Source: Caldilineaceae bacterium (GTDB taxonomy: Bacteria > Chloroflexota > Anaerolineae > Caldilineales > Caldilineaceae). From it: a DNA stretch of 64,000 nucleotides. Below are positions 12,985 to 38,021 of the stretch, one piece after another. The stretch spans positions 4,429,264 to 4,493,263 of the forward strand of contig OZ241871.1 of NCBI GenBank assembly GCA_965202955.1, read 5' to 3'. The position numbers and the translations under genes are program-made. The first letter of the stretch is position 1. Each line of letters opens with the position of its first letter. A model generated the notes under the pieces. That model was not told where the DNA came from. It saw nothing but the letters and a program-made list of their open reading frames with translations, and ran no database searches.

Positions 12985-13083
12985 GCTGAATCGTCACTTT
13001 CGCCAGGCGACCTGGCCAAACGCTGCTGGGACTATGTGCGGGGGAAGTGGACTCCAGGGCGAAGCCACCTCCCCCAATTCGCG

Positions 13084-13142
13084 CCGACTCAAGGTCCTGG
13101 CGGTCCTGAGTCGGAGCGGAACTGCTCGGCCGGCGCGCCGGC
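13084..13142 (-). other. Stem-loop and GC palindrome in the gap between the binding-protein gene and the permease gene
   Basis: CCGACTCA (13084-13091) pairs with TGAGTCGG (13107-13114). A perfect 14-nt palindrome GCCGGCGCGCCGGC sits at 13129-13142. Both lie in the 199-nt gap between the stop at 13184 and the permease start at 12984. Confidence 0.4.
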
Positions 13143-13183
13143 TTCGTCTGGCTTGTGAATCCGCACGGCGGCCGGCCAGGTCC

Positions 13184-14905
13184 TTAAGAGTCCTTGTACG
13201 ACTCGTACCAGGCGTTGACGTCCTCGGCGACCTCATCCCCGCCAAGCTCGTGCCACCTGCTGACGTACTCTTCGAACGCGTCAAGGGGCTTCAGGCCGAG
13301 GACGATCGACAGGTAGAACTCGTCCTCCATCTTCTGCAGATCGGGCAGCAGCTCGTTCATCCGCGGCGTATTGACGCCGAGAAACTCGTTCTCTATCTCG
13401 TACTCGGCCTCCTCGAACAGCTGGGCGTATGCCACCTCCTGGCGGGCCAGCCCTGGGTCGCGAATGAAGTACTTCTCGACCTTGGACAGCTCCGACGGGT
13501 CCATCTTCCGCAGCCTCTGCCTGTTGAGGTCGGCGTGGCGCTGGTATCCGGGATAGGTCGCGTGATGGAAGCCGACATCCCTGAACGAGGTGCCGGTCTG
13601 CCACTCGAGCAGCGTGATCTCGCAGTTCTCGTCCCACTCCCAGTCGTAGCCTTCCTGGAAGAGGCCGTCGTTCCCCATGTCGTCGAGCGGGCCGTAGGCG
13701 TTGTGTTTCACCGGCCCGTTGACGTGCAGCTCGCGCTGGTGGTTCAGCTGCTGGATCAGGGCCTCGACCTTGATGTCCTCCAGGTCGTGGCGGAAGACCC
13801 AGGCGTGGAACACGGGGCTGGTCCATCTGCGGCCGCGCTCGCCGGTCGGTCCTGTAGGCAGCGGCATCGTCTTGAACTCACCCTGCACCTTCTTTTCGAT
13901 CTCGACGATGCGCGATGTGCCCCACATCGGCATCGTAACGATGCCGGCATTGTCGTCGGCGGCCGTATTCAGCCCCGAGGCCCAGTCCAACGTATGGAAA
14001 TCGGGGTCCATCAGGCCATCGTTGTACCAGCCGTTGAGGAGCTCCAACACATCCTTGTTTGTATCGGTCAGGCTGTCGTAGATCAGCTTGCCGTCACCGT
14101 AGTCGCGCCACAGACCGGGCATCACCCGGTAGGCGCCGAAAATCTTGGTGAAGTCGTGCGCCCAGGAAAAGAGGCTCTTCTGGGCCGTGATGCCGTAGGC
14201 GCAAAGCCCCTCTTCGTTGAAGGCGTGCAGGGTCTTATCCCAGCCTTCGACGCTGTCCGGCATCGGCATGTCCAGCTGCTCCAGCCAGTCGTTGCGAATC
14301 CAGCTGATCGTGCAGAAGACCTTGTCGGTAATCCCCAGGTCCAGGCCATACAACTCCTGCCGGTTGTTGCGGAAGCAGTGAATCCAGTTCTTTCCTTCCG
14401 GATAGCGATGGACCTCGAGTGAGAGCGGCGACGCCGTGGCCTCCCAGATGTCCTTGATCTCCTTTAGTGCACCCTCGTCAATCAACTGATTGAACAGAGG
14501 GTCCTGAAGGTTGATCATGTCGGGCATCGTGCCCGCGGCGAGGTCGGCCTGCAGCTTCTGCTGGCGCAGCTCACCGTCAGCCATCCAATGGATGTTGAAC
14601 TTGATCCCCATCTCTTCCAAATACCAGTTGTAGTAGGGGTTGTTGGTGGCATCGTAGCCCGGCGCGAAGGTGGGCCAGGCATTAAAGGGGACGGAAACTT
14701 CGACGACCGGATCGTACTTAATTGGCGCAGGCGGCCAGCCCGACACCCAGTCTTGCTCACAATCTGAACCGGCTGATACTACTCCCTCGCTTACCGCTTC
14801 AGGCGCAGCCGGCTCAGGGGCGCCGCAGGCCGCGGCGGCCACCGCCCCTGTCGCAATCGCTGTTGCCCGCAAGAAATCTCGACGACTCAGCTTTCCGTTC
14901 TTCAT
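13184..14905 (-). CDS. Extracellular solute-binding lipoprotein, LplA-type, with Tat signal
   Basis: Preferred start is ATG 14905 with an AAGGAG RBS: MKNGKLSRRDFLRATAIATGAVAAAACGAP. This carries the twin-arginine motif SRRDFL and a lipobox AAAC. About 570 aa, the large binding-protein class that pairs with LplB/LplC permeases. Confidence 0.9.
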   Translation of the reverse strand: MKNGKLSRRDFLRATAIATGAVAAAACGAPEPAAPEAVSEGVVSAGSDCEQDWVSGWPPAPIKYDPVVEVSVPFNAWPTFAPGYDATNNPYYNWYLEEMGIKFNIHWMADGELRQQKLQADLAAGTMPDMINLQDPLFNQLIDEGALKEIKDIWEATASPLSLEVHRYPEGKNWIHCFRNNRQELYGLDLGITDKVFCTISWIRNDWLEQLDMPMPDSVEGWDKTLHAFNEEGLCAYGITAQKSLFSWAHDFTKIFGAYRVMPGLWRDYGDGKLIYDSLTDTNKDVLELLNGWYNDGLMDPDFHTLDWASGLNTAADDNAGIVTMPMWGTSRIVEIEKKVQGEFKTMPLPTGPTGERGRRWTSPVFHAWVFRHDLEDIKVEALIQQLNHQRELHVNGPVKHNAYGPLDDMGNDGLFQEGYDWEWDENCEITLLEWQTGTSFRDVGFHHATYPGYQRHADLNRQRLRKMDPSELSKVEKYFIRDPGLARQEVAYAQLFEEAEYEIENEFLGVNTPRMNELLPDLQKMEDEFYLSIVLGLKPLDAFEEYVSRWHELGGDEVAEDVNAWYESYKDS

Positions 14906-15192
14906 CGCATTGCTCCTTGACACAGTGGTAGGGAAGTCTACGAATTCCAAAGAACGATTCTGGGCTGGTACCCGGGCCTCACGTTGCAGCTATTTTTTTG
15001 TCTGGCGACCTCCTTTCTTCTTTTGGCGACCGAGCCGGACTGCCTCTCCGAGGCGGCTCAGGTTCCCAAGACTGGCTGCACCGAAAGTCGCCAAATTCAC
15101 GCGGACTCCGGCCAAGACTGGAGGGCACACAACTGCGTGTGCTCTTCTGGGGGCATGGCAACAACCGGAAAACAACCGACTGAGCCACAAAA

Positions 15193-16122
15193 TTATAGAT
15201 ACTGTCCCTTCCTTTGTGCAAACGCCTCCAATTCGGCCCTTGTCGGCAGGCCGTCAATCACGCCCAGGAAGGTCGTGGTGTAGGCCCCGGCGTAGGTGGC
15301 ACGACGCACTGCCTCGCGCAGCGAATGCCCCTCGCAGAGGGCGACCGCCAGGGCGGCATTGAAGCTGTCACCAGCCCCGGTTACGTCCAGCGCCTCCACC
15401 GGGACCGCCGCAATCTCTTCAGTTTCGCTCGCGGTCACGATGATTGCACCCTCCTCGCCGCGGGTGACCACGATCCGATCTACGCCCAGCTCCAGCAGCC
15501 GGCCCGCGAGGTCTAAGGTTGGTGTCGGGTCGTCGGGCGGCAGGCCGAGCAGGATCCGGGTCTCGCTCTCGTTGGGCGTCAGGACGTCGACGTTTGCAAG
15601 GAGGCTGGGTTCAACGGTCTGCCCGGGGGCCGGATTCAGGATGGTCATGGCGCCGTACTTCCTGCCGAGCTCGAGGCCGCGCGCCGTCGATTCCAGCGGC
15701 ACCTCGAACTGGGCCATGACGATGTCGCTGCGGGCGATGATGGATTCGGCCGCATCCACGTGGTGCGGGCGCATCCGCATGTTCGCGCCCAGATGCCCCA
15801 CGATCCAGTTGTCGCCGGAGGGCAGCAGGGTGACCAGGCCGACGCCGGTATTGATGTCGGGGATGCGGTGTAAGTGTGCGGTCGAGATGCCCTCCCCTTC
15901 GAAAAGCGGGCCGGCCATCTCGGCGAACAGGTCGTCTCCCACGCACGCAATCAGATCGACGTGCGCGCCCAGCCGCGCGGCGGCGATGGCCTGGTTGGCC
16001 CCCTTGCCGCCCGGACCCATGTCGAACAGGTCGCCGATCAGCCCTTCGCCGACAACCGGCTTGCGCGGAACGCGTACTGTCAGACCTGCCACGAAGCTGC
16101 CGATCACCACTATGTCAGGCAT
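15193..16122 (-). CDS. rbsK: Ribokinase-like PfkB-family sugar kinase
   Basis: GPGGKGANQAIAAARLG and DVTGAGDSFNAALAVAL are ribokinase/PfkB signatures. ATG 16122 lies 6 nt after GGAGGA; the track uses TTG 16128. Substrate is not proven. Confidence 0.75.
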   Translation of the reverse strand: MPDIVVIGSFVAGLTVRVPRKPVVGEGLIGDLFDMGPGGKGANQAIAAARLGAHVDLIACVGDDLFAEMAGPLFEGEGISTAHLHRIPDINTGVGLVTLLPSGDNWIVGHLGANMRMRPHHVDAAESIIARSDIVMAQFEVPLESTARGLELGRKYGAMTILNPAPGQTVEPSLLANVDVLTPNESETRILLGLPPDDPTPTLDLAGRLLELGVDRIVVTRGEEGAIIVTASETEEIAAVPVEALDVTGAGDSFNAALAVALCEGHSLREAVRRATYAGAYTTTFLGVIDGLPTRAELEAFAQRKGQYL

Positions 16123-16349
16123 AGGCAATCCTCCAAGTGAGCGGGCCGCGTTCGAGACCTGGTGGAGGCTGTTATGTGGGTTTTCAAGTGATTTCGCGGA
16201 CTATGATATTGACCAATTTCTACCATACGCAGAGGCGCTCGTCAACACGCCGAAATGGAGGCAAGTTTCGCCGAGTGCACTCTTGGCTCGGGAGGCTGCG
16301 GGCTGCGCCGGAGTTTGCTCTATGCCAAAGGACGGCCGTTGGCGAACCC

Positions 16350-16378
16350 TTGTCCACCGCTTCGAATTTGCGTATACT
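16350..16378 (+). promoter_or_regulatory. Putative sigma-70-type promoter for the diiron-protein gene
   Basis: TTGTCC (16350-16355), 17-nt spacer, TATACT (16373-16378), about 50 nt upstream of ATG 16429. Pattern match only. Confidence 0.3.
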
Positions 16379-16428
16379 TTGCTTGCGATCAGCTCCGCAG
16401 CCGCTCCTCACGACAGGAGGTGAACGGC

Positions 16429-17718
16429 ATGAACTGTGTTTACCAGTACGCCGGACTGGGCCGGGCCAAAGAAACCGGCCTCAGCGTGGAACAAAGCGCC
16501 CGCCAGATCCGGCGGCTTGCCTATGTCGAAGAGAGGCTCATGTTTCTGCAGGCCGTGCACATCGTCACGACGCCGCAGCGGGATCTGAAGGCGCTGCTGT
16601 CGCGGTTGCAGTATGAAGACGGCCTCCACTCCGATCGGTTGAAGAATCGACTGACTGAACTGCGTACTTCGCAAGTCAGGAGCCACCGCGCGCCCGACGA
16701 GCGGCTAAAGCTTCTCTTCGACGAAGCGATGTTTTCTGCCGGCAGCGTCGAACTGCTCGCGGCGCTGGTCAAGGTGTTCAAGCCGGCCCTGTTGGAGGTC
16801 TACCGCAGCTACGTGGCCCGGACTAATGGCTTGGCAGACTACGAATCGGTGCGGTTGATGCGGAGCATCATCGTTGAGGAAGAAGAGGGTCTGCGCTTGC
16901 TTGAGGCCGCCTACAGTGAAGTTGTGAATTCAGCCACGAAAGAGGCGCAGGCGCAGAGTTGGGCCGCCACACTGCAAAGCATGCTGCGCGCCTCCGGCGG
17001 GATCAGCGGGGAAATGGAAGTCGAAGAAGGGCGCGCAACCGTTGAGGCCGAGCGCAGCCGTGGAGTCGAGTTTCATGTCGCGCGCAAGCCGGAGCGTGAT
17101 GACACGTTCCGGCATGTATGGGATATTGTCCATGTAGATGAAGACCGAATTCCGGAGCGGTTCGTTCAGATGATAGCCACCCGGCTGGGCGAGCTCACCA
17201 TCGCAGAGGCGCTGGCCATTGTTTTGTGGGACGTGAAAGGGCAGCCCTGGTCGTTCTATGCGGCGATTTCCCGCCATATGTGGGACGAGATGCGCCACTC
17301 GTTGTTCGGAGAGGCCGCCGCGGAGCATGTTTACGGCGACCGAGGCGTAATGCCGCTGCGCGACTTTGAGATTGAATACCTGTTCAAGATGTCGCCGCTC
17401 GAGCTCTACGCCATGTTGGGGATCGGCGTTGAAGCCGCCCTGATGAAGTATCCGCCGGGCAAGCGGGCCGAGTACGAGTTCTGCCGCGACCAGGCGCGCC
17501 ATCCGCTGATGACTACATTTCAGGATTTCGACTGGGCGGACGAAGTTGAACACGTGAATATCGCCCGCCGGCAGTTGAGAGAGTGGTACTCCGGTGACAG
17601 CGAAGATCTGGTCGCCCTGGCAGAGAAAGGCATGGAGTTCCGCGCCCGAACGCGCCGGCTCCACTCTCCGTCTCCGATGCCCGATCTTTCCGTCAGCTCG
17701 GAACAGGACGCCGGCTGA
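16429..17718 (+). CDS. Ferritin-like diiron-carboxylate protein (two helical halves; C-terminal half carries the E...ExxH...E...ExxH ligand set)
   Basis: The track ORF starts at 16255. I prefer ATG 16429 with the RBS CAGGAGG (MNCVYQYAGLGRAKETG...). Candidate metal ligands in the C-terminal half are LTIAEAL, WDEMRHS, GVEAAL and ADEVEHV. No closer family is recognised. Confidence 0.7.
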   Translation: MNCVYQYAGLGRAKETGLSVEQSARQIRRLAYVEERLMFLQAVHIVTTPQRDLKALLSRLQYEDGLHSDRLKNRLTELRTSQVRSHRAPDERLKLLFDEAMFSAGSVELLAALVKVFKPALLEVYRSYVARTNGLADYESVRLMRSIIVEEEEGLRLLEAAYSEVVNSATKEAQAQSWAATLQSMLRASGGISGEMEVEEGRATVEAERSRGVEFHVARKPERDDTFRHVWDIVHVDEDRIPERFVQMIATRLGELTIAEALAIVLWDVKGQPWSFYAAISRHMWDEMRHSLFGEAAAEHVYGDRGVMPLRDFEIEYLFKMSPLELYAMLGIGVEAALMKYPPGKRAEYEFCRDQARHPLMTTFQDFDWADEVEHVNIARRQLREWYSGDSEDLVALAEKGMEFRARTRRLHSPSPMPDLSVSSEQDAG

Positions 17719-17862
17719 CATACGCGCAAGCGGAATCCAGGCAGTTACGGTTGCATCAGGGCCAGCTAGCAGGTCCCTCTGTCAATTGGATTGAGCCCTC
17801 CGCGGCGGTCGAGTGAGTGGCCGCAGCGCCGTGGCAGTGGCCGAAAACAGGTACAGAGTTGG

Positions 17863-17890
17863 TTGCATTTTCGACGAATATCCTTAGACT
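17863..17890 (+). promoter_or_regulatory. Putative internal promoter ahead of the aldolase gene
   Basis: TTGCAT (17863-17868), 16-nt spacer, TAGACT (17885-17890), in the 252-nt gap upstream of GTG 17971. Pattern match only. Confidence 0.25.
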
Positions 17891-17970
17891 GTACCTGGAG
17901 ATGGTGCCATCGCGTTGTCAAAGAGACTTCAAAGTCGCCGCACGAAAACCGTCAGGGGGGAACCGAACAC

Positions 17971-18747
17971 GTGAGAACCAATTGGGTGCGCGAGCGACTG
18001 CTCGCCGGTAAGCCGACCGCAGGCTGTTTCATGGGCATGGGCAGCCCGCTCATCGCCGAATTGCTGGCGCACGCCGGCTACGACTGGCTCTCGATTGAGA
18101 TGGAGCACAACGGGCTCGATTTTGCGGGCGTGCAGCAGATGCTGATGGCGATGAGCAGCACCGACTGCATTCCGATTGCTCGCATTCCGTCGTCCGAACC
18201 AACATACATCCAGCGCGCGCTTGACATCGGCGCGATGGGTATTCTCGTTCCCATGGTCCGCAGCGCGGCCGAGGCCGAATCGATCGTAGCCATGACGCGC
18301 TACCCGCCGGCGGGCAGGCGCAGTTTCGGCCCGCTGCGCGCCTCAAACTATACGATCGACTACGAAGGCTATTTCGCCGGTGCCAACGACAATACGCTTG
18401 TCGTCCTGATGCTGGAAACGCAGGAGGCCTTCGACGACTTCGAAGCGATCTGCGCCGTTCCGGGCGTGGACGCCGTGTACGCGGGCCGATTCGACCTCAG
18501 CCTGTCACTGGGTCTCAACCCGATGCAGGAGGACTCGATTCCACCGATCGAAGAGGCTCTCGCAAGGGCGCTGGCGATCGGTCGCGAGAACGGTGTCGCC
18601 ATGGGCTACGGCTGCGGCTCGGCCGAAGAGTTCCGTATGAGAGTAGAGCAAGGCTTTACGTTTCTGTGCTATGCAACCGACTACAATCTGCTGGCCGACA
18701 CCGCTCGCGATAGACTGTCGGCGGTGGGGGACCTTTTGCGAAAATAA
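17971..18747 (+). CDS. HpcH/HpaI-family 2-keto-3-deoxy-acid aldolase (RhmA/YfaU-like)
   Basis: The track ORF starts at 17791. I prefer GTG 17971 after AGGGGGGA. The sequence VRTNWVRERLLAGKPTAGCFMGMGSPLIAELLAHAGYDWLSIEMEHNG...IARIP...RYPPAGRRSFGP...LMLETQEA...GRFDLSLSLG is colinear with E. coli RhmA as I remember it. Confidence 0.85.
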   Translation: MRTNWVRERLLAGKPTAGCFMGMGSPLIAELLAHAGYDWLSIEMEHNGLDFAGVQQMLMAMSSTDCIPIARIPSSEPTYIQRALDIGAMGILVPMVRSAAEAESIVAMTRYPPAGRRSFGPLRASNYTIDYEGYFAGANDNTLVVLMLETQEAFDDFEAICAVPGVDAVYAGRFDLSLSLGLNPMQEDSIPPIEEALARALAIGRENGVAMGYGCGSAEEFRMRVEQGFTFLCYATDYNLLADTARDRLSAVGDLLRK

Positions 18748-18759
18748 GGAGAAAAAGCC

Positions 18760-19722
18760 ATGTCTGAATTTCAGCCTTTCAGAGATTCGACGCCGCATCT
18801 TGGCGACGGGTCGCGATTGCGCGAAACGCTGCACGACGAAGGTTATCTCTTCCTGCGCCGCCTGGTCGACCCGGAGCAGATCAAGACGGTCAAGCGGGAC
18901 ATCATGCAGATCCTGCGCGATCATCACATTATCGAAGATGATGAGACCGACGACCCGATGTGGAGCGGCGGCCCCCATCCCAGCGAAGGCGAATACATGG
19001 CCTTCTACGACAAGATCGCTCGCATGGACTCATTCGTGCAGCTGGCGGAGTCGCCTGAGATCGTCGCGCTGATGGAGGGCATCTTCGACGGGCCGGTGCA
19101 GGTGTGGACGCAGCGGCTGATCCGCGTGATGTATCCCGACCCCGACGCACCGGCCCCGATCGGTCTCGGTGCCCACCAGGACGGTAACTTCAGGTTCGGC
19201 TATCAGTCCCAGAGCTTCAACGCCTGCTGGATGCCGCTCATGGAAATCAACCAGCAGATCGGCGGCCTGGCAGTCGCGCCCGGCTCAAACATTCGCGGCG
19301 AGCTGGACCACGGCGGCGGCTCTGTGGCGAGTTCGGCCAAGGCGGTAAAAGAGAAAAAGGTGTTCGGGCTGGATGCCGAAAGTCTCAACTGGGTAACATC
19401 CGACTTCGAGCCAGGTGATGCCGTAATCTTCACCAGCCTGACCGTTCATCGCGGCATCCTAAACCGCTCCGACCGCATCCGCCTCTCCTGCGATTTTCGC
19501 TACCAGCGGGTCGACGACTCCGCCAGCTGGCTTGCGCACACGCTTGGCCCCGACATCCGGCGGGTCGCACAGAAGATCGATGAGGTCATGGCAAGCCGTG
19601 CGTTTTTTGTCACTACGCGCGCGTCAGAAGAGACAATTGCCGACGTTCGCCTGCGGATGCTCGAAGAGAAGAGCACGAGCCTTGAACGGGCGCAGGAGCT
19701 TGCGAAAGAACTGGCCGTTTGA
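18760..19722 (+). CDS. Phytanoyl-CoA dioxygenase (PhyH) family Fe(II)/2-oxoglutarate oxygenase, copy 1
   Basis: 320 aa. The facial triad is intact: GAHQDGN (HxD) and LTVHRG (distal His), followed by RIRLS. AAGGAG RBS. Confidence 0.85.
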   Translation: MSEFQPFRDSTPHLGDGSRLRETLHDEGYLFLRRLVDPEQIKTVKRDIMQILRDHHIIEDDETDDPMWSGGPHPSEGEYMAFYDKIARMDSFVQLAESPEIVALMEGIFDGPVQVWTQRLIRVMYPDPDAPAPIGLGAHQDGNFRFGYQSQSFNACWMPLMEINQQIGGLAVAPGSNIRGELDHGGGSVASSAKAVKEKKVFGLDAESLNWVTSDFEPGDAVIFTSLTVHRGILNRSDRIRLSCDFRYQRVDDSASWLAHTLGPDIRRVAQKIDEVMASRAFFVTTRASEETIADVRLRMLEEKSTSLERAQELAKELAV

Positions 19723-19744
19723 ACGGGGCCGGGCGAACCCAGAC

Positions 19745-20047
19745 ATGCTTACTGAAGGGTCGGGTCTGCTGCGGATTGCCGAGCAGGACAACGTCTTCGT
19801 TTTGATGCAGTCGCTCTCGCCCGGCGAGCGTCTTCAATTGGACGGTCGCCTGGTCATCTGTGAATCTCCGCTGGGAATGGGCCATAAGATCGCTGCGCGC
19901 GATATCGCCGCGGGTGAGAAGATCATCAAATACGGCGCGCCGATTGGGTCGGCGGTACGCGATATCAGGTTGGGCGAGCACGTTCACCTGCACAATATTC
20001 AGAGCGACTACATTCCCACCTACACGCTGGATCGCGACGCAGGGTGA
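19745..20047 (+). CDS. UxaA-family dehydratase small subunit (SAF domain)
   Basis: The track ORF 19532-20047 is over-extended. ATG 19745 gives MLTEGSGLLRIAEQDNVFVLMQSLSPGERLQLDGRLVICESPLGMGHKIAARDIAAGEKIIKYGAPIG, the typical N-terminal SAF module of altronate/galactarate dehydratases. Confidence 0.8.
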   Translation: MLTEGSGLLRIAEQDNVFVLMQSLSPGERLQLDGRLVICESPLGMGHKIAARDIAAGEKIIKYGAPIGSAVRDIRLGEHVHLHNIQSDYIPTYTLDRDAG

Positions 20048-21276
20048 CGTCCATGAGCCGGTCGCCGCAGCCGTCCTCATCTGAATTTCAGGGTTACCTT
20101 CGCTGGGACGGGCGCAAGGGCATCCGCAACACGGTCCTGGTCGCCTACCTTGTCGAGTGCGCCCACCACGTCGCGCGCGAGATCGTCTATCCTTTCCGAA
20201 CACAGGGCGTTCACCTGATCGGATTCAGCGGCTGCTATCCCAACGAGTACGCCTTCGACATGATGTCGCGCCTCTGTTGCCATCCCAATGTGGGTGGCGC
20301 GCTCCTGCTCTCACTGGGATGCGAGAGCTTCGATCGCAGCGGGCTGGCCCAGCGTATCGAAGCGAGCGGCAGGCCGGTCGCCACTTTGGTCATCCAGGAG
20401 CAGGGTGGGACTTTGTCGACGATCGAGAAAGGCCAGGCGTGGCTTGGGCAGACGCTCGCCGGATTAAAGGAGAGTACCGAGCGCGTGCCGATGGGCGTGG
20501 AGGAGCTGGTTGTGGGCGCGATATGCGGCGGCTCCGACGCCACCAGCGGCATCACGGCAAACCCGGCAATTGGGCGTTGCTTCGACCTGCTGGTCGAGCA
20601 CGATGCCGGCGCCATCTTCGAGGAGGGTGGCGAGTTGATCGGCTGCGAGCAGATCATGGCCGAGCGGGCCGTGACACCGGACCTGGCCGCAGAAATCCTT
20701 TCGACGATGGAAAAGACCGCGCGCTACTACACGACTTTGGGGCACGGCAGCTTCGCGGTGGGAAACGCGGAGGGTGGGCTGACCACAGTCGAGGAAAAGT
20801 CGATGGGCGCCTACGCCAAGAGCGGCTCCTCGCCGATACAGGGCCTGATCAAGCCTGGCGACGTGCCGCCAGCGGGAGGCCTGTACCTGATGGACGTTGT
20901 CCCGGACGGCGAGGTGCGGTTCGGCTTCCCCAATATCAACGACACGGTCGAAATCGCCGAGATGATCGCGTGCGGCGCGCACATGACTCTCTTTTCCACG
21001 GGACGCGGCTCAGTGGTTGGGTCTGCGATCTCGCCTGTGATCAAGGTCTGCGCCAATCCGGAGACCTACCGGCGCATGGGCGGTGACATGGACGTGGACG
21101 CGGGGCGGATTCTCGAAGGGCGCGCCACCCTCGACGAGGTCGGACATGAGATCTTCGCGCAGGTGCTGGACGTTGCAGCAGGCGCGCTGACTAAGTCCGA
21201 ACGCCTGGGTCACCAGGAGTTCGCGCTGACCTACAAGACGTTTGAGCCGATCGGTCCGGCCTGCCTTCCTCTATAG
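20044..21276 (+). CDS. UxaA-family (altronate/galactarate-type) dehydratase large subunit
   Basis: 410 aa: FQGYLRWDGRKGIRNTVLVAYLVECAHHVAREI...LSLGCESFD...ICGGSDATSGITANP...FSTGRGS. GTG 20044 overlaps the small-subunit stop (GTGA). ATG 20053 is an alternative start. Confidence 0.85.
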   Translation: MTSMSRSPQPSSSEFQGYLRWDGRKGIRNTVLVAYLVECAHHVAREIVYPFRTQGVHLIGFSGCYPNEYAFDMMSRLCCHPNVGGALLLSLGCESFDRSGLAQRIEASGRPVATLVIQEQGGTLSTIEKGQAWLGQTLAGLKESTERVPMGVEELVVGAICGGSDATSGITANPAIGRCFDLLVEHDAGAIFEEGGELIGCEQIMAERAVTPDLAAEILSTMEKTARYYTTLGHGSFAVGNAEGGLTTVEEKSMGAYAKSGSSPIQGLIKPGDVPPAGGLYLMDVVPDGEVRFGFPNINDTVEIAEMIACGAHMTLFSTGRGSVVGSAISPVIKVCANPETYRRMGGDMDVDAGRILEGRATLDEVGHEIFAQVLDVAAGALTKSERLGHQEFALTYKTFEPIGPACLPL

Positions 21277-21492
21277 TCTCCGCTTTGGCCTCCCGATTCT
21301 ACCCAAAGGAACCGGATTCCGCCTGCCGAGATTTCGCATCGGCGGCGAAGAGTTTTAGACTTATCTGGTTGCAGGCAACCTGCCTACGCGCCAGCCGCTT
21401 GGCGGCCTGAACTGTAGGCCGCTGCCCCGGGCGAACGGTAGTAGATGCTCGCAGACTGGCGATTGAAACGGGAGCGGGAGAGAAGCACTGAC

Positions 21493-22488
21493 ATGACTGC
21501 AGAAACCGGATTCGGCGGACAACCGGCTGATACAGCCGACGGTTCCGGCACGGAGGCATCGAAGCAGACCGGGCGCGGGCGAAGTTGGAAGGAGTATATC
21601 GGGCTGGCCGCGCGCGGCTTCGCGATGGGCTGTGCCGATGTGGTACCGGGCGTTTCCGGCGGCACGATGGCGTTCATTCTTGGCATCTACGAGGAGCTGG
21701 TGATGAGCATTCGCGCCGGCGCCCGGGGGCCCTTCTGGCGCGCCCTGACCAGGTTCGACATTGGAGCTGCGCTGGCAGCAGTGAACGCGCCGTTTCTGGC
21801 CGCAGTCCTCGCCGGCATCGCCATCGCCGTCGTGACCCTGGCTCCCGGATTGGAGTGGCTTTTTGAGCACCGGCCTGTGCTGCTGTGGAGCTTCTTTTTC
21901 GGGCTTGTGCTCGCTTCGATCGTCACAGTGCGCAAGCGAATTGAACGCTGGACTCTTCCGCTTTTCGCGGCGCTGGCCGCGGGGGCGGTGGGCGCCTACT
22001 TTTTGGTGGGGGCGGTGCCTGTGCAGACGCCCGAAGCGGCCTGGTTCCTCTTCCTCAGCGGCATGCTCGCCATCTGCGCGATGATTCTGCCGGGCATATC
22101 AGGCTCGTTTATCCTGGTGCTGCTGGGAAAGTACCAGTTCGTGCTTGCGGCGGTCAACCAGCGGGATGTTGTCAGTCTCGGTATCGTCGCTCTGGGCGCG
22201 CTCGTTGGCATCGTATCATTCGCCCAGGTGCTTGCGTGGCTGTTCAAGCGCTTCCATGACGTCACTGTGGCGCTCCTCATCGGCCTGATGGCCGGCAGCC
22301 TGCGCAAGGTCTGGCCGTGGAAGGAGACGGTCGCCTCGATCGTCGACCGGCACGGTGAGATCCTTCCTACCGTCCAGGTCAACCAACTGCCTACCGCCTG
22401 GACAGGCGAGCTGTTCGCCGCCTTCGGACTGGCGCTGACCGGCTTTGCGATCGTTATCGTGCTGGAACGGATCAGCCGTTCGCAATGA
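21493..22488 (+). CDS. DUF368 family membrane protein (family reported as the undecaprenyl-phosphate translocase PopT)
   Basis: GFAMGCADVVPGVSGGTMAFILGIYEELV, with a second-half repeat MILPGISGSFILVLLGKY. Multi-TM. The start is uncertain: ATG 21493 after GGGAGAGAAG, or ATG 21445. Confidence 0.85.
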   Translation: MTAETGFGGQPADTADGSGTEASKQTGRGRSWKEYIGLAARGFAMGCADVVPGVSGGTMAFILGIYEELVMSIRAGARGPFWRALTRFDIGAALAAVNAPFLAAVLAGIAIAVVTLAPGLEWLFEHRPVLLWSFFFGLVLASIVTVRKRIERWTLPLFAALAAGAVGAYFLVGAVPVQTPEAAWFLFLSGMLAICAMILPGISGSFILVLLGKYQFVLAAVNQRDVVSLGIVALGALVGIVSFAQVLAWLFKRFHDVTVALLIGLMAGSLRKVWPWKETVASIVDRHGEILPTVQVNQLPTAWTGELFAAFGLALTGFAIVIVLERISRSQ

Positions 22489-22532
22489 CGGGACAAAGCC
22501 CAGGCCAGGGTACAGTATAGCCCCAACGCCGG

Positions 22533-23861
22533 CTATGTTCCGGTTGGCATAGAGAGCGGGCGCTCAGCATCAACCAGCTGCGAGGCCGTTCTGCGCGGCT
22601 CCTTCACCCACAAGATCATCAAACACAGGGCGACGAACGCAAACGCCAGCGAGATTCTGAACATCGCGGCGTAGCCGAGCGCGCCGGCAAGCCATCCGCC
22701 GAAGATGGGCGCGCAGATCAGCATCGGCGCGAGCAGCGTGTTGGTGAGTCCTACGTAGGTTGGCCGGCTCTCAGGCGTGCTGAACTCGAGGATGATGTTG
22801 AGCGCCGACGTGTGGTCGGCCGCCAGGAAGGCGCCGAGGAAGACGAAGGTGAGGAGCAGCCCGAGGGGAACGGGGCCGCCGCTGTTCGGCGCGCCCGGGG
22901 CCCCAGCCGCGCCGACAAACAGCGCGTTGAGGGGAGCGAGCACGATGAAAGCCGCGGCCGCGGTCAGCACGGTCTTGTGGCCCACACGGTCGGCCAGCAT
23001 GCCCCAAAGGGGATTCAGCACAGCCTGCGCCCCCACGAGGACGGCTGTCAGCAGACCGATGCCGCGCCCGTCGAGGGCGAATAGCTCTGCACCGTACACG
23101 GCGAAGAAGCCTGCGCTCATTCCCCCCAGATTCACAAAAGACTTGCTGATCAGGTAACGGCGGAAGTTGTGATCCTGCTTGAGTACGGTGCCGACGCTGC
23201 GCAGGTAACGAAACAGAGGGACGGCCTCTTTCGTCATGTCGCTGGGCGGCTCGCGCGTGAGCGCCAGTCCTGCCCAGGAAAAGAGCATGATGACAAATGC
23301 GGCGAAAAAGAGGAGCGCGTAGTTGCCGGGAAAGGCGTAGCTGACCAGGACCCGGCCCACGAACCAGGCGCCGAGCACCCCCAAGAGCAGGCCGAGTCCG
23401 TGCCCGAGGCCGAGCCAGATGCCGCGGCGGCGCGTTGGGATCACCTTTGCGATCATGTCCATCCAGGCCGGGGTGGCCACGCCCGCGCCGGTTGACGCTA
23501 AGGCCATTCCCAGCAGCAGGGCAATCAGTGCAGCCGCCGGGGCTGTAACCGCAAAGGCGAGGACGGCAAGCCCGATTAGGAGGTAGGGCAGCCGCTCGAC
23601 CGCGAGCGAGATGTACATGATGAACGGCTTCTTGTACACCATGCGCTCGGCCAAGCTGGCTGTCAGGAGCTGCGGCAAGTAGATGCCGAGGCTCCACATC
23701 GCCGGCACAAGGCCGATCGCCAGTTTGGAGTCTGTGAGCTGGCTGACGAGGACGGGAATGACTGTCTCGCGCGAGATGAGACTGAAGCCCAACGTGATGA
23801 AGGTAACGTCCCACAGATTGACGGAGAAGTTCCAGGCGTTTGTGTTGTCAGCGCGGGCCAT
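22533..23861 (-). CDS. MFS transporter
   Basis: 442 aa with about 12 hydrophobic segments in a 6+6 arrangement around a central loop. Its start overlaps the upstream PhyH stop by 14 nt. Confidence 0.85.
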   Translation of the reverse strand: MARADNTNAWNFSVNLWDVTFITLGFSLISRETVIPVLVSQLTDSKLAIGLVPAMWSLGIYLPQLLTASLAERMVYKKPFIMYISLAVERLPYLLIGLAVLAFAVTAPAAALIALLLGMALASTGAGVATPAWMDMIAKVIPTRRRGIWLGLGHGLGLLLGVLGAWFVGRVLVSYAFPGNYALLFFAAFVIMLFSWAGLALTREPPSDMTKEAVPLFRYLRSVGTVLKQDHNFRRYLISKSFVNLGGMSAGFFAVYGAELFALDGRGIGLLTAVLVGAQAVLNPLWGMLADRVGHKTVLTAAAAFIVLAPLNALFVGAAGAPGAPNSGGPVPLGLLLTFVFLGAFLAADHTSALNIILEFSTPESRPTYVGLTNTLLAPMLICAPIFGGWLAGALGYAAMFRISLAFAFVALCLMILWVKEPRRTASQLVDAERPLSMPTGT

Positions 23862-24783
23862 CGGCTTCGGCCCCGTCCGGGTCGGCGAAAGGGCGGAATC
23901 CGCGCACCATCAATCCCTGTGGTTCATTCTCGCGGCGGGCCTGCTGTGCCTTTTTCTCAGCCTCGGCGCGATTGGCGGTCGTGGTCGCCCTGATGATGGC
24001 GTAGTCGTCAGGGCGCCGGTAGCGGTTGATGAAGATGGGTCGGGGCGTATCGGAGTGGTTCTGCTTGGAGCCGTGGATTGTTTTGACGTTGAAGAAGATC
24101 GAGTCGCCGGCCTGTCCGACAACAGGCAGCGCCGCTTCCCAGGGCCATTCGTCCTCGTCCAGGCCCAGGTGTGAAAAGGTATCGACGTGCCGCAGCTGGC
24201 CGAACTTGTGCGAGCCGGGGACGACGTGCACGGCACCGTTGACCAGGTCGGTGTCTACCACGTAGGAGAGAATCGCGACCGGCCCTTCATAGCGGTGCTC
24301 GAAATAGGCCGAGTCCTGGTGCAGATGTTTGGGATGTCCGCCGACAGGCTCTTTGACCAGCGACTGGCCGTTGCCAAACAGCTCGATGTTCGGGCCGAGG
24401 ACCGCTTCCAGAATGTCGAGGGCGACCGGATCGGTAGCGGCGCGCAGGAAGGCGGCGCTGGTCTGGTAGCTGATGCCGACTGTCATGATCTGCTTGTCGC
24501 GCTTGTAACCTTGCGGCGCGGGAATGAAGAGCGACCCGTTCGGCGAGACCCAGCCTTCGGGTCTTCTCTCGGCCCGGTCGAGCAGCGCGACCGCCTGATC
24601 CACGGTGGCGGCGATATCCTGCGCCATCTCTGCGATGTAAGGTTGCATCAGCCCGCGCACGACGAGGCAGCCGTGCTCGCGGTAGATTGCGGCCGCGCGG
24701 TCGATCTCCAGATTCTCGGCCATCACCGACAGTTCGTCGACGGTAACTTGGGGCTCAAGTAGACGCGATTCCATGGCTACCAT
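23848..24783 (-). CDS. PhyH family Fe(II)/2-oxoglutarate oxygenase, copy 2
   Basis: 311 aa. HLHQDSAYFEH (HxD), TIHGSKQN (distal His), then RPIFINRYRR. Confidence 0.85.
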   Translation of the reverse strand: MVAMESRLLEPQVTVDELSVMAENLEIDRAAAIYREHGCLVVRGLMQPYIAEMAQDIAATVDQAVALLDRAERRPEGWVSPNGSLFIPAPQGYKRDKQIMTVGISYQTSAAFLRAATDPVALDILEAVLGPNIELFGNGQSLVKEPVGGHPKHLHQDSAYFEHRYEGPVAILSYVVDTDLVNGAVHVVPGSHKFGQLRHVDTFSHLGLDEDEWPWEAALPVVGQAGDSIFFNVKTIHGSKQNHSDTPRPIFINRYRRPDDYAIIRATTTANRAEAEKKAQQARRENEPQGLMVRGFRPFADPDGAEADGPR

Positions 24784-24853
24784 TTAACTGACGGGACCAG
24801 CGATGTGGACTGGTATGGGGAATAGGCGTTGCCCAAATTTCGCATAGTTAAGT

Positions 24854-26251
24854 TCAAAACAGATTCTCGGATGTCGTAGTCGGACACCAGCGATGAACGC
24901 TGAGATAGTCGAACGCGATCTCGAGCGCGTCGGTTGTGCCGATCCGACGCAGGGCGTCGACGGAATTGGCGCGTACGTAACGGTTCTCGTCACGCAGCGC
25001 CGCTTTCAGCGCGGGGACGGCGCCGGCGGCGCGGCTGCCCAGCCGCTGGAGCGAGAGAGCGCTTGTGAAGCGCGCCTGCCCGTCCTCGTCGTTAAGGCCG
25101 CCAACGAGCGCGGGCAGAATAACGTCGGCAGGTTCTTTGAGCAGCCCGAGCGCTTCGACCGCCGCGCGCCGCACCTGCACCGAGGGGTCGGCTGCCGCGC
25201 CGGCCACCGCTTCAGCAGACCCCGAACCGCCGTCTCCCAGTTCGCCCAGTGCGAAGACGGCGTGCATGCGCGCCTCCTCGCTCTCATGGCCGACGGTGTC
25301 GAGCAGAGCGCTCTGGGCGGCCAAGCCGATGGCACTCAGGCCGTAGCCGGCATTGCGGGCGGCGGTAGCATTCCCGCTGGTGAGCGAGGCGGTAAGCGCG
25401 GGAATTGCGTCGTCGGTGTGGGTAGCCAGGCGATAGGCCGCGTCGACGCCGGTCGGCTCATATTTTGAGGCCAACTGCTCGCCCAGAGCTGCGACCTCGC
25501 CTACATCATTAGGCCGGCCATTGCCATTGGACGCGCCGTCCGCCTCGCCGCGATGCCAGTGCCACTGCTGCGCCCAGAGGACATTGTGATCGACGGGTGC
25601 GTCTTCGACCTCCAGCCAGTCGTCGCGCCGGCTGTCCCATGCTGGTTTTGTGGGCGCATCCATGCGCACGAACTGGAACTTCATCATGGCTCGGCTTTTC
25701 TGCGAGACATTGGCGCCGCCGCGGTGCCACAGGTCGTAGTGGATGAGGGCGAAGGTACCTTCCGGCCCCTTCATAAAGACCGGCTGCTCGGTGTCGTCAC
25801 CGGCCCGTTTCGCGTAGTATTGAGAACCACGGAGGACTCCCGAAGGCCCCATCTCCTCATCGACCGCCTGCGGGTAGTAGAAGATCATCGCCCACCAATT
25901 GTGGTGGTTGCGGACCTTCTGATGTCCCCAATAGCTGTCCTTGTGCCAGTGCTGGACCTTGCGGCCGGGGTAAGTAAAGTGGCAGTGGCGATGGGGATGG
26001 ACCATATAGTTGTCGCCCAGCACGCTGGAAAGACCCCCGTGCACGGCGGGGTCCTCGAGAATGTCGTTGATTTCGCTCAAGCGGGGCAGCAGGTTGTTGC
26101 CCGGATTGCCTTCCTTTTCCATCACCTCGTTGAGATTGGCGTTGAGCGATTCGTAGAACTCTTTCGGAAGTTCCGTACGCAGGATCACATAGCCGCGCGA
26201 GATGAACTGGCGCATCTGTTCGTCGGTCAGAAGATGGCTCGATTCGCTCAT
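24854..26251 (-). CDS. PhyH-family oxygenase domain fused to a C-terminal HEAT/PBS-lyase-type repeat domain, copy 3
   Basis: N-terminal ~235 aa: HWHKDSYW (HxD), YDLWHRGGAN (distal His), RAMMKFQF. C-terminal ~200 aa: repeated units of the kind VRRAAVEALGLL...ALVGGLNDEDGQARFTSALSLQRLG...ALKAALRDENRYVRANSVDALRRIG. Confidence 0.8.
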   Translation of the reverse strand: MSESSHLLTDEQMRQFISRGYVILRTELPKEFYESLNANLNEVMEKEGNPGNNLLPRLSEINDILEDPAVHGGLSSVLGDNYMVHPHRHCHFTYPGRKVQHWHKDSYWGHQKVRNHHNWWAMIFYYPQAVDEEMGPSGVLRGSQYYAKRAGDDTEQPVFMKGPEGTFALIHYDLWHRGGANVSQKSRAMMKFQFVRMDAPTKPAWDSRRDDWLEVEDAPVDHNVLWAQQWHWHRGEADGASNGNGRPNDVGEVAALGEQLASKYEPTGVDAAYRLATHTDDAIPALTASLTSGNATAARNAGYGLSAIGLAAQSALLDTVGHESEEARMHAVFALGELGDGGSGSAEAVAGAAADPSVQVRRAAVEALGLLKEPADVILPALVGGLNDEDGQARFTSALSLQRLGSRAAGAVPALKAALRDENRYVRANSVDALRRIGTTDALEIAFDYLSVHRWCPTTTSENLF

Positions 26252-26348
26252 TTGAGTTTCCTTCCAGGTGGACTGCGTCCTATAGGCAGGCTCGTCAGCC
26301 CCAAGAATCAGATCGAACTCTCGCGGCCGGTTTTTTCCATACGGCCCG

Positions 26349-27110
26349 TCAGTGGTTCCGTGGCGGAGGGCACAGATGGCCTTCCCGCACGATCGGCACC
26401 GCCTGGCCCCACAGTTCTGTCCCTTCCTTATTCATGATCGGCTCAGCCGAATATTGCGCCAGGTAGCAGCGGCGGATGCGCGAGGTTGTGTTGGGGCCGC
26501 TGCGGTGAAATGTGCGGCTGCTGAAGACGACAATGCTGCCGGCAGGGACAATGGCCGGGACGCCGGGGTGATCGCCGCGGTAGCCGATCTTGTCGTTGCT
26601 GGCGTCCTCTATCGTGTGGTCGTAGAGGTCGTCGGGCGTCATCCCGATGGCGGAGTAGGGCAGCACCGACACGGTCCCGTTCTCGGTCGACATGTCGTCT
26701 AGCGCGCACCAGCAGGAGAGATAGGGGCGGTGGTAGTGGCCGATGTAGCCCGAGTCCTGGTGCCAACCGAACTTGGTGCCCACTTCGGCGAACTTGACCA
26801 CGTACTGTTCGTGAAACAGGTAAGCGGTATCGCCCAAGGTCGCGCGGCAGATATCCGCCATGAGTTCGCTGAACAGAAAGTCGGTAATCGTAGGACTCTC
26901 CAACCCGCGCCTGCTGATAAAGTACCGCTTCTTGTAGTGGTTGATTCCCTGAACGGTAACGCCCTTCGCCTCCATTTCGGCATCGTAGCGGGCGATGTAG
27001 CGCTGGCATTCGTCGCGCAATCCCTCCACCTGCTCATAGGGGATAGCGTTTTCGAGGAACATGTAGCCCTCGTTGCGGTACTGGTCGCGCTGTTTTTCGG
27101 AGATGTGCAT
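26349..27110 (-). CDS. PhyH family Fe(II)/2-oxoglutarate oxygenase, copy 4
   Basis: 253 aa. FGWHQDSGY (HxD), RTFHRSGPN (distal His), RIRRCYLAQY. Confidence 0.85.
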   Translation of the reverse strand: MHISEKQRDQYRNEGYMFLENAIPYEQVEGLRDECQRYIARYDAEMEAKGVTVQGINHYKKRYFISRRGLESPTITDFLFSELMADICRATLGDTAYLFHEQYVVKFAEVGTKFGWHQDSGYIGHYHRPYLSCWCALDDMSTENGTVSVLPYSAIGMTPDDLYDHTIEDASNDKIGYRGDHPGVPAIVPAGSIVVFSSRTFHRSGPNTTSRIRRCYLAQYSAEPIMNKEGTELWGQAVPIVREGHLCPPPRNH

Positions 27111-27485: not shown

Positions 27486-27561
27486 TACAAAAGCGCTTTA
27501 GTAAAGACAGCTGAGCAGCTCCGATTTCCCATTGACTGGGGCTGATTCGAGGCTTCCGCAG

Positions 27562-35961: not shown

Positions 35962-38021
<2,060 letters not shown>

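Follow-up and report, generated by a model that had tools for sequence, protein, structure and literature searches.

A region of about 12 kb (positions 15193-27110) in a 64,000-nucleotide stretch of the genome of a Caldilineaceae bacterium (contig OZ241871.1; the whole stretch is here called the window) combines four dioxygenases of the PhyH family and a putative diiron protein, UNK430, with a sugar kinase, a pyruvate aldolase, a split acid-sugar dehydratase and a transporter of the major facilitator superfamily (MFS). Our best explanation, to which we assign slightly less than an even chance, is that the region is a three-module, O2-dependent catabolic island for a decorated, possibly O-alkylated, sugar or sugar acid of the fucose/rhamnose type. 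What the sequences show are the gene families, unbroken catalytic motifs, operon-like packing and linkage of the genes across phyla. The substrate, the order of the steps, the type of oxidation and the service of all modules in a single pathway are the parts that we infer. The gene families themselves are known, while the combination of genes and the diiron family are new. The genes of the region are as follows.

15193-16128, minus strand: PfkB-family sugar kinase (Pfam PfkB, 192 bits), divergent from the UNK430 gene.
16429-17718, plus strand: UNK430, a two-domain, all-helical protein of 429 amino acids as modelled, the C-terminal domain very probably a divergent DUF455/AurF-like ferritin fold with a putative diiron-carboxylate motif.
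17791-18747 (open reading frame, ORF; probable start near 17971), plus strand: HpcH/HpaI-family class II pyruvate aldolase (Pfam HpcH_HpaI, 106.4 bits against a cut-off of 25).
18760-19722, plus strand: PhyH-1, of the Fe(II)/2-oxoglutarate dioxygenase family (Pfam PhyH, 65.3 bits; HQD...H...R).
19745-20047, plus strand: SAF small subunit of a split UxaA/GarD-type dehydratase (Pfam SAF, 30 bits; Met start likely at 19745).
20044-21276, plus strand: large subunit of the split UxaA/GarD-type acid-sugar dehydratase (GD_AH_second, 95 bits; GD_AH_C, 274 bits).
21445-22488, plus strand: DUF368/VCA0040-like membrane protein of an undecaprenyl-phosphate translocase-like family (PF04018, 299 bits).
22533-23861, minus strand: MFS_1 transporter, at the end of the minus-strand operon (Pfam MFS_1, 86 bits).
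23848-24783, minus strand: PhyH-2 dioxygenase (Pfam PhyH, 83.4 bits; HQD...H...R).
24854-26251, minus strand: PhyH-HEAT, a PhyH domain fused to C-terminal HEAT repeats (PhyH, 38.9 bits; HEAT_2, 74 bits; HKD...H...R).
26349-27110, minus strand: PhyH-4 dioxygenase, at the head of the minus-strand operon (Pfam PhyH, 98.9 bits; HQD...H...R).

All four PhyH copies lie above the Pfam gathering cut-off for PhyH (PF05721, 22 bits), and the catalytic HxD, the distal His and an Arg about 10 residues beyond it are aligned in each of them and in seven relatives. By score and motif they are members of PF05721, and turnover is predicted. An earlier note on this DNA, made from the letters alone, had listed four PhyH proteins with an intact HxD...H...R set, which a single alignment confirmed, and the families that it had named (PhyH, HpcH, SAF/UxaA, PfkB and MFS) score above Pfam thresholds in the hidden Markov model (HMM) searches that it had suggested. 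Its gene list was incomplete, in that the DUF368/VCA0040-like gene at 21445-22488 was missing from it. HpcH and PhyH-1 are separated by 12 nucleotides, the stop codon of PhyH-1 lies 23 nucleotides from the Met start of the SAF gene, and the end of the SAF gene overlaps the start of the gene for the UxaA large subunit by 4 nucleotides. On the minus strand, the start of the MFS gene overlaps the stop of PhyH-2 by 14 nucleotides (23848-23861), as stated in the note, and the same overlap recurs in a relative, locus L082 (genes 11434-12360 and 12347-13690). The ORFs of the region, and the other ORFs scanned across the 64-kb window, include no dehydrogenase, lactonase or regulator, in agreement with the note. 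Scans of the locus for promoters and terminators gave nothing decisive. The frameshift in the LigA gene of this assembly, described below, means that individual ORF boundaries should be read cautiously.

Conservation of the block was examined at 80 loci by tblastn with the proteins of the window as queries. The complete order from the gene for the substrate-binding protein (SBP) of the upstream importer to PhyH-4, comprising 12 genes, was recovered solely from six close relatives in the Caldilineaceae (L002-L005, L009 and L039), one of which is without the dehydratase. Because this order is kept in six other genomes at protein identities of 58-97%, chance is excluded as its source. In about 22 genomes of a sister clade, only a PhyH gene of subfamily c5 with PfkB, divergent from UNK430 with HpcH, stays together. 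In L082 of this clade, the order is a pair of ATP-binding cassette (ABC) exporter genes, PhyH4-PhyH-HEAT-PhyH2-MFS, DUF368, UxaA-SAF, a second MFS gene and a GFO_IDH_MocA dehydrogenase gene, and the DUF368 gene lies between UxaA and MFS in both Caldilineaceae clades (window 21445-22488, plus strand; L082 13732-14727). The block in the window is a lineage-specific fusion of separately conserved modules and not one ancestral pathway unit. The 12 kb had been read in the note as one locus serving one route. The sister clade carries the modules apart; the modules are conserved separately in several phyla, but the full arrangement only in the six close relatives. Likewise, the lack of a dehydrogenase pointed out in the note is true of the window but not of the sister clade. 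Because the PhyH4-to-UxaA block of the latter adjoins a GFO_IDH_MocA dehydrogenase gene, the absence of a dehydrogenase is a trait of the arrangement in this lineage and not of the modules.

The closest relative, L002, has one PhyH gene more, a fifth (subfamily c5; about 250 amino acids), in a segment of about 1.07 kb (3498-4563) that corresponds to 10844-11009 of the window; a search for this gene in the window found none. Of 24 sister-clade genomes, about 19 have the c5 gene beside PfkB, and its absence from the window may represent either a deletion or an assembly variant.

The most unusual component of the region is UNK430, for which sequence and profile searches gave no threshold-level match in Pfam, NCBIfam or the PDB, and for which Pfam scans returned no HD domain. 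None of the 485 homologues is informatively named, those with a name being called “hypothetical protein,” and an HMM scan of 1.84 billion representatives retrieved 1048 relatives at E<=1e-3. In the literature we found no account of the family, nor of a ferritin-like diiron protein with a sugar kinase. An AlphaFold (AF2) model with a predicted local distance difference test (pLDDT) score of 79.7 has two domains, both helical, at residues 21-189 and 242-412, and the C-terminal domain modelled alone reached 78. Residues are numbered here on the 430-amino-acid translation from 16426, from which 1 should be subtracted for the Met-start protein of 429 amino acids. In a set of 82 sequences with 34-100% identity, E256, E288-x-x-H291, E336/E349 and E373-x-x-H376 are invariant in at least 97%, and the full invariant set comprises E256, E261, H284, D287, E288, H291, E296, E336, E349, E351, D367, D369, D372, E373 and H376. 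These residues concentrate in the C-terminal domain, and those of the motif, E...ExxH...E...ExxH, sit in helices of its model with spacings of 32 and 37 residues, near those of bacterioferritin and ribonucleotide reductase R2. The N-terminal domain retains the basic residues K55, R60, R75 and R80 and has no metal motif.

When the whole UNK430 model was searched with Foldseek, the weak best matches were bacterioferritin and Dps, none at E<=0.001. Remodelling the C-terminal domain alone moved the matches to diiron oxygenases and brought up PaaA/PaaC, CmlI, sMMOH, T4moH, ADO, AetD and UndA with template-modelling (TM) scores of 0.45-0.61, still with non-significant E-values (0.07-0.7 at best). 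Against the Pfam model AurF, the window protein scores 14.9 bits (cut-off 29.6), and it matches no other Pfam model. Below the thresholds, AurF is matched over the ExxH helices in 13 of 27 members of the family, and DUF455 and Ferritin in four each. Furthermore, 6 of 10 distant full-length relatives pass the DUF455 threshold in their C-terminal domain (38.9-98.6 bits against 34.3); the link to DUF455 is one of transitivity, because the window protein is below the cut-off and its distant relatives are above. UNK430 very probably belongs, as a divergent protein of two domains, to the ferritin-like DUF455/AurF branch; it has a predicted dinuclear metal site, and its chemistry would involve iron and O2. 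The ferritin-like diiron protein of the note is plausible on the basis of motif, fold similarity and remote homology, although the window protein itself reaches no threshold.

Genes within 3.5 kb were counted at 81 UNK430 loci. PfkB is near UNK430 in 41 of these, comprising 28 of 30 in the Caldilineaceae, 10 of 20 in other Chloroflexota and all 3 in the Latescibacterota, and a PhyH gene stands beside UNK430-PfkB at 25 of the 30 Caldilineaceae loci, 2 of the 3 in the Latescibacterota and some in Paenibacillus. In the Latescibacterota locus L038 (7751-17499), five PhyH genes and AP_endonuc_2 surround PfkB-UNK430. The neighbours in the Verrucomicrobia (n=7) are a GntR/LacI regulator (6/7), a CUT2 sugar ABC importer (5/7) and a ROK kinase (3/7), and those in the Firmicutes (n=20) an AraC regulator (9/20) and a xylose-isomerase-like TIM barrel (10/20). 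Some loci in the Firmicutes have an SBP and two permeases directly upstream (Paenibacillus L061), or a GFO_IDH_MocA or PL22-like gene. At L001 in the Caldilineales, the neighbours are DeoR, a short-chain dehydrogenase/reductase (SDR), URO-D-like, fucose-isomerase-like, DUF4432, alcohol dehydrogenase (ADH) and FGGY kinase genes and a CUT2 importer, while an MR_MLE dehydratase, MFS and IclR accompany UNK430 in the Anaerolineales. A UNK430 homologue also occurs in Litorilinea aerophila (L010), a cultured member of the Caldilineaceae.

The kinase of the window scores 280.9 bits against the ribokinase model TIGR02152, under the cut-off of 299.65, and 238 bits against NF008353 (cut-off 341). In the structure of RbsK from E. 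coli, ribose is bound by the Asn and Asp of an N-x-D motif. This motif is found as GSVNADH and GSLNMDL in two aligned solved ribokinases, whereas the window kinase has GSFVAGL (V-A-G), and the variant GS[FY]V[AV][GS] is common to the PfkB kinases next to UNK430 in relatives. A plain ribokinase was considered for the PfkB gene and is ruled out by the sub-cut-off score and the missing N-x-D. Because the scores are just below the ribokinase cut-off and N-x-D is replaced by V-[AV]-[GS], the UNK430-linked PfkB kinases are, to judge from these features, a distinct subfamily that is ribokinase-like but not canonical ribokinase. The “ribokinase-like kinase” of the note is right as to family and general likeness, but the protein scores under the ribokinase cut-off and lacks N-x-D. 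The simplest reading would be that UNK430 turns an imported modified monosaccharide into the substrate of the kinase, or that it acts on the phosphorylated product.

URO-D-like genes (uroporphyrinogen decarboxylase/methyltransferase) were also seen to adjoin UNK430 (4 of 20 loci in “other Chloroflexi”; L001 11286-12413) and to lie near PhyH-HEAT (L085 8636-9694). The URO-D-like family includes methyl-transfer enzymes and would suit a methyl-sugar theme.

In the second module, the aldolase reaches none of the equivalog models, with 155 bits for HpaI, 151 for GarL and 113 for RhmA against cut-offs of 369, 407 and 441, respectively. The orthogroup of PhyH-1 is tight, with members sharing at least 47% identity before a gap to 33% or less, and of the solved structures PtlH is nearest to it (E 7.6e-18). 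An HpcH gene is found within 3.5 kb at 19 of 33 loci with PhyH-1 orthologues, and at 8 of the 11 for which both flanks were present (metagenome scan). AP_endonuc_2 occurs at 13 of the 33, and at 49 loci of paralogues with at most 36% identity to PhyH-1 neither HpcH nor AP_endonuc_2 was found (0/49 for both). Because of their linkage at 19 of 33 orthologous loci versus 0 of 49 paralogue loci, HpcH and PhyH1 appear to form a conserved functional pair across phyla. Other neighbours of the orthologues are a second conserved PhyH subfamily, SDR, 2-hydroxyacid dehydrogenase and GFO_IDH_MocA genes and a sugar-type MFS. At L088, the PhyH-1 orthologue lies between two HpcH genes, followed by Cupin, Amidohydro_2, Rieske, five more PhyH genes and AP_endonuc_2. 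The order at L089 is PhyH-PhyH1-HpcH-GFO_IDH_MocA, then a convergent AP_endonuc_2 gene, and PSD1/PSCyt/DUF1501 genes of the Planctomycetes type are present. The window has no genes of the PhyH-d and PhyH-c subfamilies, which are companions of PhyH1 at other loci.

The UxaA dehydratase of the window fills the place held by the TIM-barrel protein at other PhyH1 loci; the AP_endonuc_2 family includes dehydratases such as IolE. The SAF, second and C-terminal domains of UxaA/GarD are all present, split over two polypeptides, and a separate SAF gene of 101 amino acids was also called in L082. The only solved relative of the large subunit is GarD (6u7l; E 2e-39), and with 182 bits the subunit falls far below the cut-off of 731 for galactarate dehydratase (TIGR03248).

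As for other loci with PhyH1, the segment 9201-20993 of L088 is dense in PhyH genes, with at least six of them, two HpcH, Cupin, two Amidohydro_2, Rieske and AP_endonuc_2. The subfamilies PhyH1, PhyH-d and PhyH-c and a TIM-barrel gene are common to L038 and L088 at 41-74% identity, in two phyla.

For the minus-strand module, both the PhyH and HEAT Pfam domains are recorded in 119 of the 120 listed homologues of PhyH-HEAT (47-91% identity), and we found no description of this family in the literature. Genomic contexts were inspected at eight loci from more distant Chloroflexi and the sister clade (L082-L087, L170 and L171). A GH29 alpha-L-fucosidase gene follows PhyH-HEAT immediately at four of the eight (L083, L084, L086 and L170), and two of these four have a further GH29 gene together with genes for an aldo-keto reductase, an MR_MLE dehydratase, an RraA-like aldolase, an iron-type alcohol dehydrogenase (Fe-ADH) and an MFS transporter, these being the enzyme types of non-phosphorylative L-fucose catabolism. 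At L085, a PhyH2 homologue (71% identity) is placed directly upstream of PhyH-HEAT, in the company of FG-GAP/ASPIC, URO-D-like, MFS and GHL6 genes, a fucosidase fragment and a sulfatase-GH95 fusion, whereas the contexts at L087 and L171 are uninformative. MFS homologues near PhyH-HEAT have 49-70% identity in L082, L084 and L085 (49-54% in L084 and L085), and the MFS protein has no relative in the PDB. The weak PDB relatives are EvdO1, PHYH and SnoK for PhyH-2, and EvdO2, EctD, SnoK, KanJ and PHYHD1 (2opw, E 1.8e-4) for PhyH-4; the matches of window PhyH copies to EvdO1/O2, SnoK/N, EctD and KanJ have E-values of 1e-5 to 1e-10. A DOHH-like diiron site in the HEAT domain was considered and ruled out by eye, as the HEAT region has just one His-Glu pair. 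The sugar kinases, importers and fucosidases in the contexts of the modules in relatives bear out the link to carbohydrates that the note had drawn, and the conserved association of oxygenases with sugar enzymes fits its candidate substrate, a modified sugar (methylated, sulfated, amino or deoxy) from a glycan containing fucose or rhamnose.

Upstream of the region are two SBP/permease sets, a polysaccharide deacetylase, RhaM and a GH95-like ORF; the deacetylase is an addition to the context given in the note, which was otherwise correct. The features next to the region are as follows.

6362-6676, plus strand: RhaM mutarotase (Pfam rhaM, 106 bits).
6714-10088, minus strand: GH95-like glycosidase (Glyco_hydro_95_cat, 44 bits; Glyco_hydro_95_C, 35.5 bits).
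11030-14950, minus strand: SBP-dependent ABC importer with an SBP carrying a twin-arginine translocation (TAT) signal and two permeases (Pfam SBP_bac_1, BPD_transp_1).
27532-31427, plus strand: pair of ABC exporter half-transporter genes, divergent from PhyH-4 (ABC_membrane and ABC_tran in both).

The importer SBP is upstream of PfkB in the six close relatives (87-96% identity), and the exporter pair, which is of the heterodimeric type, stands beside PhyH4 in L082 too (4774-8618; 76-82% identical). The GH95-like ORF (1124 amino acids) is overlapped out of frame by an ORF of 560 amino acids (9265-10947, minus strand) with a weak GH127 match over 33 residues, which may reflect either a further frameshift or a single large glycosidase that is much extended at its N-terminus. 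Beyond the exporter pair, DNA polymerase X is followed by the NAD-dependent DNA ligase LigA (35962-38021, plus strand). The latter is split into ORFs 35962-36414 and 36420-38021 in different frames, with a break at about 36.4 kb; the first piece is normal up to the adenylation motif EPKFDGL and then degenerates, as expected of a frameshift, be it a sequencing indel or a pseudogene. Two consecutive genes for large membrane proteins (985 and 933 amino acids) with PTPS_related glycosyltransferase-like domains (51908-57663, plus strand) and, beside them, a gene of the DUF3417/glycogen-phosphorylase family (49399-51984, minus strand) are unrelated to the locus.

By comparison with known systems, the locus appears most similar to a non-phosphorylative 6-deoxyhexose or an aldarate (GarD/GarL) pathway to which oxygenases have been added, and it belongs to neither, because no dehydrogenase or lactonase was found in the ORFs scanned and all equivalog models fail. 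The non-phosphorylative route for L-rhamnose and L-fucose uses a mutarotase, a 1-dehydrogenase, a lactonase, an acid-sugar dehydratase and a class II pyruvate aldolase (RhmA/YfaU). The window is similar in having RhaM upstream, a core of acid-sugar dehydratase and HpcH aldolase, a GH95-like gene and importers, and relatives of PhyH-HEAT occur in clusters with GH29, aldo-keto reductase, MR_MLE, RraA-like and Fe-ADH genes. It differs in that the scanned ORFs of the 64 kb include no dehydrogenase or lactonase, in a dehydratase of the split UxaA/GarD type and not of the enolase superfamily, in an aldolase with 113 of 441 bits for RhmA, and in five oxygenase-type genes at the locus. With the GarD/GarL/GarP/GarR/GarK pathway for galactarate and glucarate in E. 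coli, the locus shares the two core families and an MFS transporter, GarD being the match in 6u7l and GarL (151 bits) one of the best models for the aldolase. Unlike in that pathway, the dehydratase is split, the equivalog scores all fall well short of the cut-offs, a GarR reductase and a glycerate kinase are missing, and the kinase is ribokinase-like.

In the PhnY/PhnZ and TmpA/TmpB systems, a PhyH-family hydroxylase acts first and a diiron oxygenase then cleaves the activated bond, PhnZ and TmpB being HD-domain enzymes. The resemblance to PhnY/PhnZ suggested in the note is one of logic, in that a PhyH enzyme and a putative diiron protein meet in a catabolic setting, a pairing seen in the Caldilineaceae, the Latescibacterota and some Paenibacillus. 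However, UNK430 is predicted to have a ferritin fold and not an HD domain, it occurs more often without PhyH, there is no phosphonate context, and the window PhyH copies score 19-32 bits against the cut-off of 500 for a PhnY*-type methylphosphonate hydroxylase, which places them outside PhnY/PhnZ. UNK430 is similar to the arylamine N-oxygenases AurF/CmlI and to DUF455 in its E...ExxH...E...ExxH motif within a predicted four-helix core, with AurF the commonest sub-threshold match and CmlI one of the top structural matches. It differs in scoring under every threshold, in its extra N-terminal helical domain with K55, R60, R75 and R80, and in a context of sugar uptake and phosphorylation instead of aromatic amine chemistry. 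The PhyH-family enzymes EvdO1/EvdO2, SnoK/SnoN and KanJ modify C-H bonds of sugar rings in antibiotic biosynthesis. They share the Pfam family of the window proteins and count among the solved structures nearest to PhyH-2 and PhyH-4, but at E-values of only 1e-5 to 1e-10, and they are biosynthetic enzymes of large antibiotic clusters, none of which is present here.

FJS and PHYHD1, also of the PhyH family, O-demethylate the 2'-O-methylribose of nucleosides with release of formaldehyde (PMC12709175). The role proposed here would be similar in that a catabolic “de-decoration” precedes ordinary sugar metabolism, whereas the sequence similarity is distant (PHYHD1, 2opw, against PhyH-4, E 1.8e-4) and the window locus has no nucleoside-handling genes. 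We found no description of this type of locus in the literature, and the sole carbohydrate demethylase found, that for 6-O-methyl-D-galactose, is a P450 (PMC6292453).

We hypothesize that O2-dependent iron enzymes would perform the chemically hard steps on a sugar freed from glycans of the fucose/rhamnose type. In the first module, cytoplasmic UNK430 would serve as a diiron oxidase or oxygenase that makes an imported modified monosaccharide phosphorylatable by the co-evolving PfkB kinase. In the second, PhyH1 would hydroxylate a sugar or sugar acid, the UxaA/GarD-type dehydratase would yield a 2-keto-3-deoxy acid, and the HpcH aldolase would split this acid into pyruvate and an aldehyde. In the third, PhyH4, PhyH-HEAT and PhyH2 may hydroxylate C-H bonds beside oxygen or at the deoxy carbons of a fucose-type substrate, with the MFS transporter carrying substrate or product. 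The likeliest reaction of this module would be an oxidative O-dealkylation, for example an O-demethylation with release of formaldehyde, which we propose because FJS and PHYHD1 offer a chemical precedent in the PhyH family (PMC12709175).

Several observations weigh against this hypothesis. The three modules lie apart in the sister clade of the Caldilineaceae, and their adjacency in the window may be recent and non-functional. Most UNK430 loci outside the Caldilineaceae and Latescibacterota are without any PhyH gene, no structural match of UNK430 reaches a significant E-value (0.001 or lower), and the neighbourhood encodes neither a reductase nor a ferredoxin that could partner a diiron monooxygenase. 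The PhyH copies of the window are all remote from characterised enzymes, the best match being PtlH at E 7.6e-18. As three of the four GH29-adjacent loci are mutually syntenic, they amount to about two independent observations. Finally, the MFS transporter has no sugar-porter signature and only weak NCBIfam matches, to efflux-type models, and the DUF368 gene and the ABC exporter pair are conserved neighbours with no evident catabolic role.

We also considered the possibility that the genes are independent neighbours with three or four unrelated functions (kinase/diiron/aldolase, dehydratase, DUF368 and PhyH-MFS) and no common substrate, which we regard as unlikely but as an explanation to be taken seriously. 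It accords with the sister clade, where about 22 genomes keep just PhyH(c5)-PfkB and UNK430-HpcH, where the PhyH4-to-UxaA block lies elsewhere with an MFS and a GFO_IDH_MocA gene of its own, and with the absence from the window of PhyH-d and PhyH-c, the companions of PhyH1. It accords less well with the recurrence of PhyH at UNK430-PfkB (25/30 loci in the Caldilineaceae, 2/3 in the Latescibacterota and some in Paenibacillus), with the position of PhyH1 between HpcH and the dehydratase at gaps of 12 and 23 nucleotides, or with the stability of the fused order in six genomes at 58-97% identity, and every module has carbohydrate contexts elsewhere. A common pathway of another kind is conceivable, in which PhyH1 replaces the dehydrogenase and lactonase by hydroxylating the anomeric C1-H of a 6-deoxyhexose (L-fucose or L-rhamnose) to give the aldonate, which UxaA and HpcH would convert to pyruvate and lactaldehyde. 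The order HpcH-PhyH1-SAF-UxaA with near-zero spacing, the lack of a dehydrogenase or lactonase in the scanned ORFs of the window, the RhaM and GH95-like genes upstream, and the linkage of PhyH1 and HpcH across phyla, often with an AP_endonuc_2 TIM barrel instead of UxaA, would all suit such a replacement. Yet the cost in 2-oxoglutarate would be unusual for a step that NAD-dependent enzymes do cheaply, we know of no enzyme with a PhyH1-type oxidation of aldose to aldonate, and loci of PhyH-1 orthologues often hold SDR, GFO_IDH_MocA or 2-hydroxyacid dehydrogenases, so that we judge this replacement improbable.

Two further explanations would take the oxygenases out of ordinary sugar catabolism. 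The minus-strand operon could, together with the ABC exporter pair, serve to hydroxylate and then export either a small metabolite or a protein to which the HEAT repeats bind. The similarities of the MFS transporter are weak and of the efflux type, the exporter pair is retained next to the operon in both clades, the closest solved relatives of the PhyH copies are natural-product tailoring enzymes, and HEAT repeats are typically protein-binding. We nevertheless consider tailoring and export very unlikely, given that the scanned ORFs of the window include no scaffold genes for nonribosomal peptide synthetases, polyketide synthases, terpenes or glycosyltransferases, that PhyH-HEAT is found inside fucosidase and fucose-catabolic clusters elsewhere, and that the neighbours in the window are glycosidases and importers. 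Even less probable, to a degree that we would hardly expect it, is the cleavage of C-P or C-S bonds by a PhnY/PhnZ-like pair acting on a phosphonate or sulfonate sugar, with the split UxaA protein acting like SuyAB, the two-subunit sulfolactate sulfo-lyase of the UxaA family. The combination of PhyH and a diiron protein fits the logic of PhnY/PhnZ and TmpA/TmpB, and sulfatase genes occur near related loci. UNK430 is, however, ferritin-like as predicted and not of the HD type, the PhnY*-type scores are 19-32 against 500 bits, GarD is both the sole solved relative and the sole NCBIfam match of the UxaA subunit, the window has no genes for phosphonate or sulfonate transport or for sulfite handling, and the contexts of UNK430 are neutral-sugar kinases and importers.

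A broader hypothesis, which is speculative and in our judgement rather doubtful, is that PhyH dioxygenases and the new DUF455-like diiron family are parts of a widespread, undescribed toolkit for O2-dependent sugar catabolism. Its enzymes would strip O-alkyl or other decorations from fucose-type and other sugars, or oxidise their C-H bonds, and thereby prepare them for kinases, dehydratases and aldolases, and it would extend across the Chloroflexota, Planctomycetota, Latescibacterota, Verrucomicrobiota, Paenibacillus and marine metagenomes. The same hypothesis would also explain the PhyH expansion in the Poribacteria, a phylum of sponge symbionts. In these bacteria, PhyH genes make up 1.9% of all genes, an expansion left unexplained in a study from 2014 (PMC3909097). 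The metagenome-assembled genomes behind several of the related Caldilineaceae loci have bin names in the style used for sponge samples.

Should our explanation prove wrong, the locus would still be a clean example of catabolic modules reshuffled between close lineages. If it is correct, a function would be provided for the approximately 1000 unannotated sequence clusters of the UNK430 family and for several PhyH subfamilies, new enzymes for the removal of methyl and other ether groups from sugars would become available, and the PhyH expansions in the Poribacteria would gain a testable explanation. The O-demethylation or C-H hydroxylation of deoxy and decorated sugars, for which the literature that we found covers one P450 system and 2'-O-methylnucleosides, would then have a place in bacterial catabolism, and aerobic glycan catabolism in poorly cultured phyla would routinely employ Fe(II)/2-oxoglutarate and diiron oxygenases.

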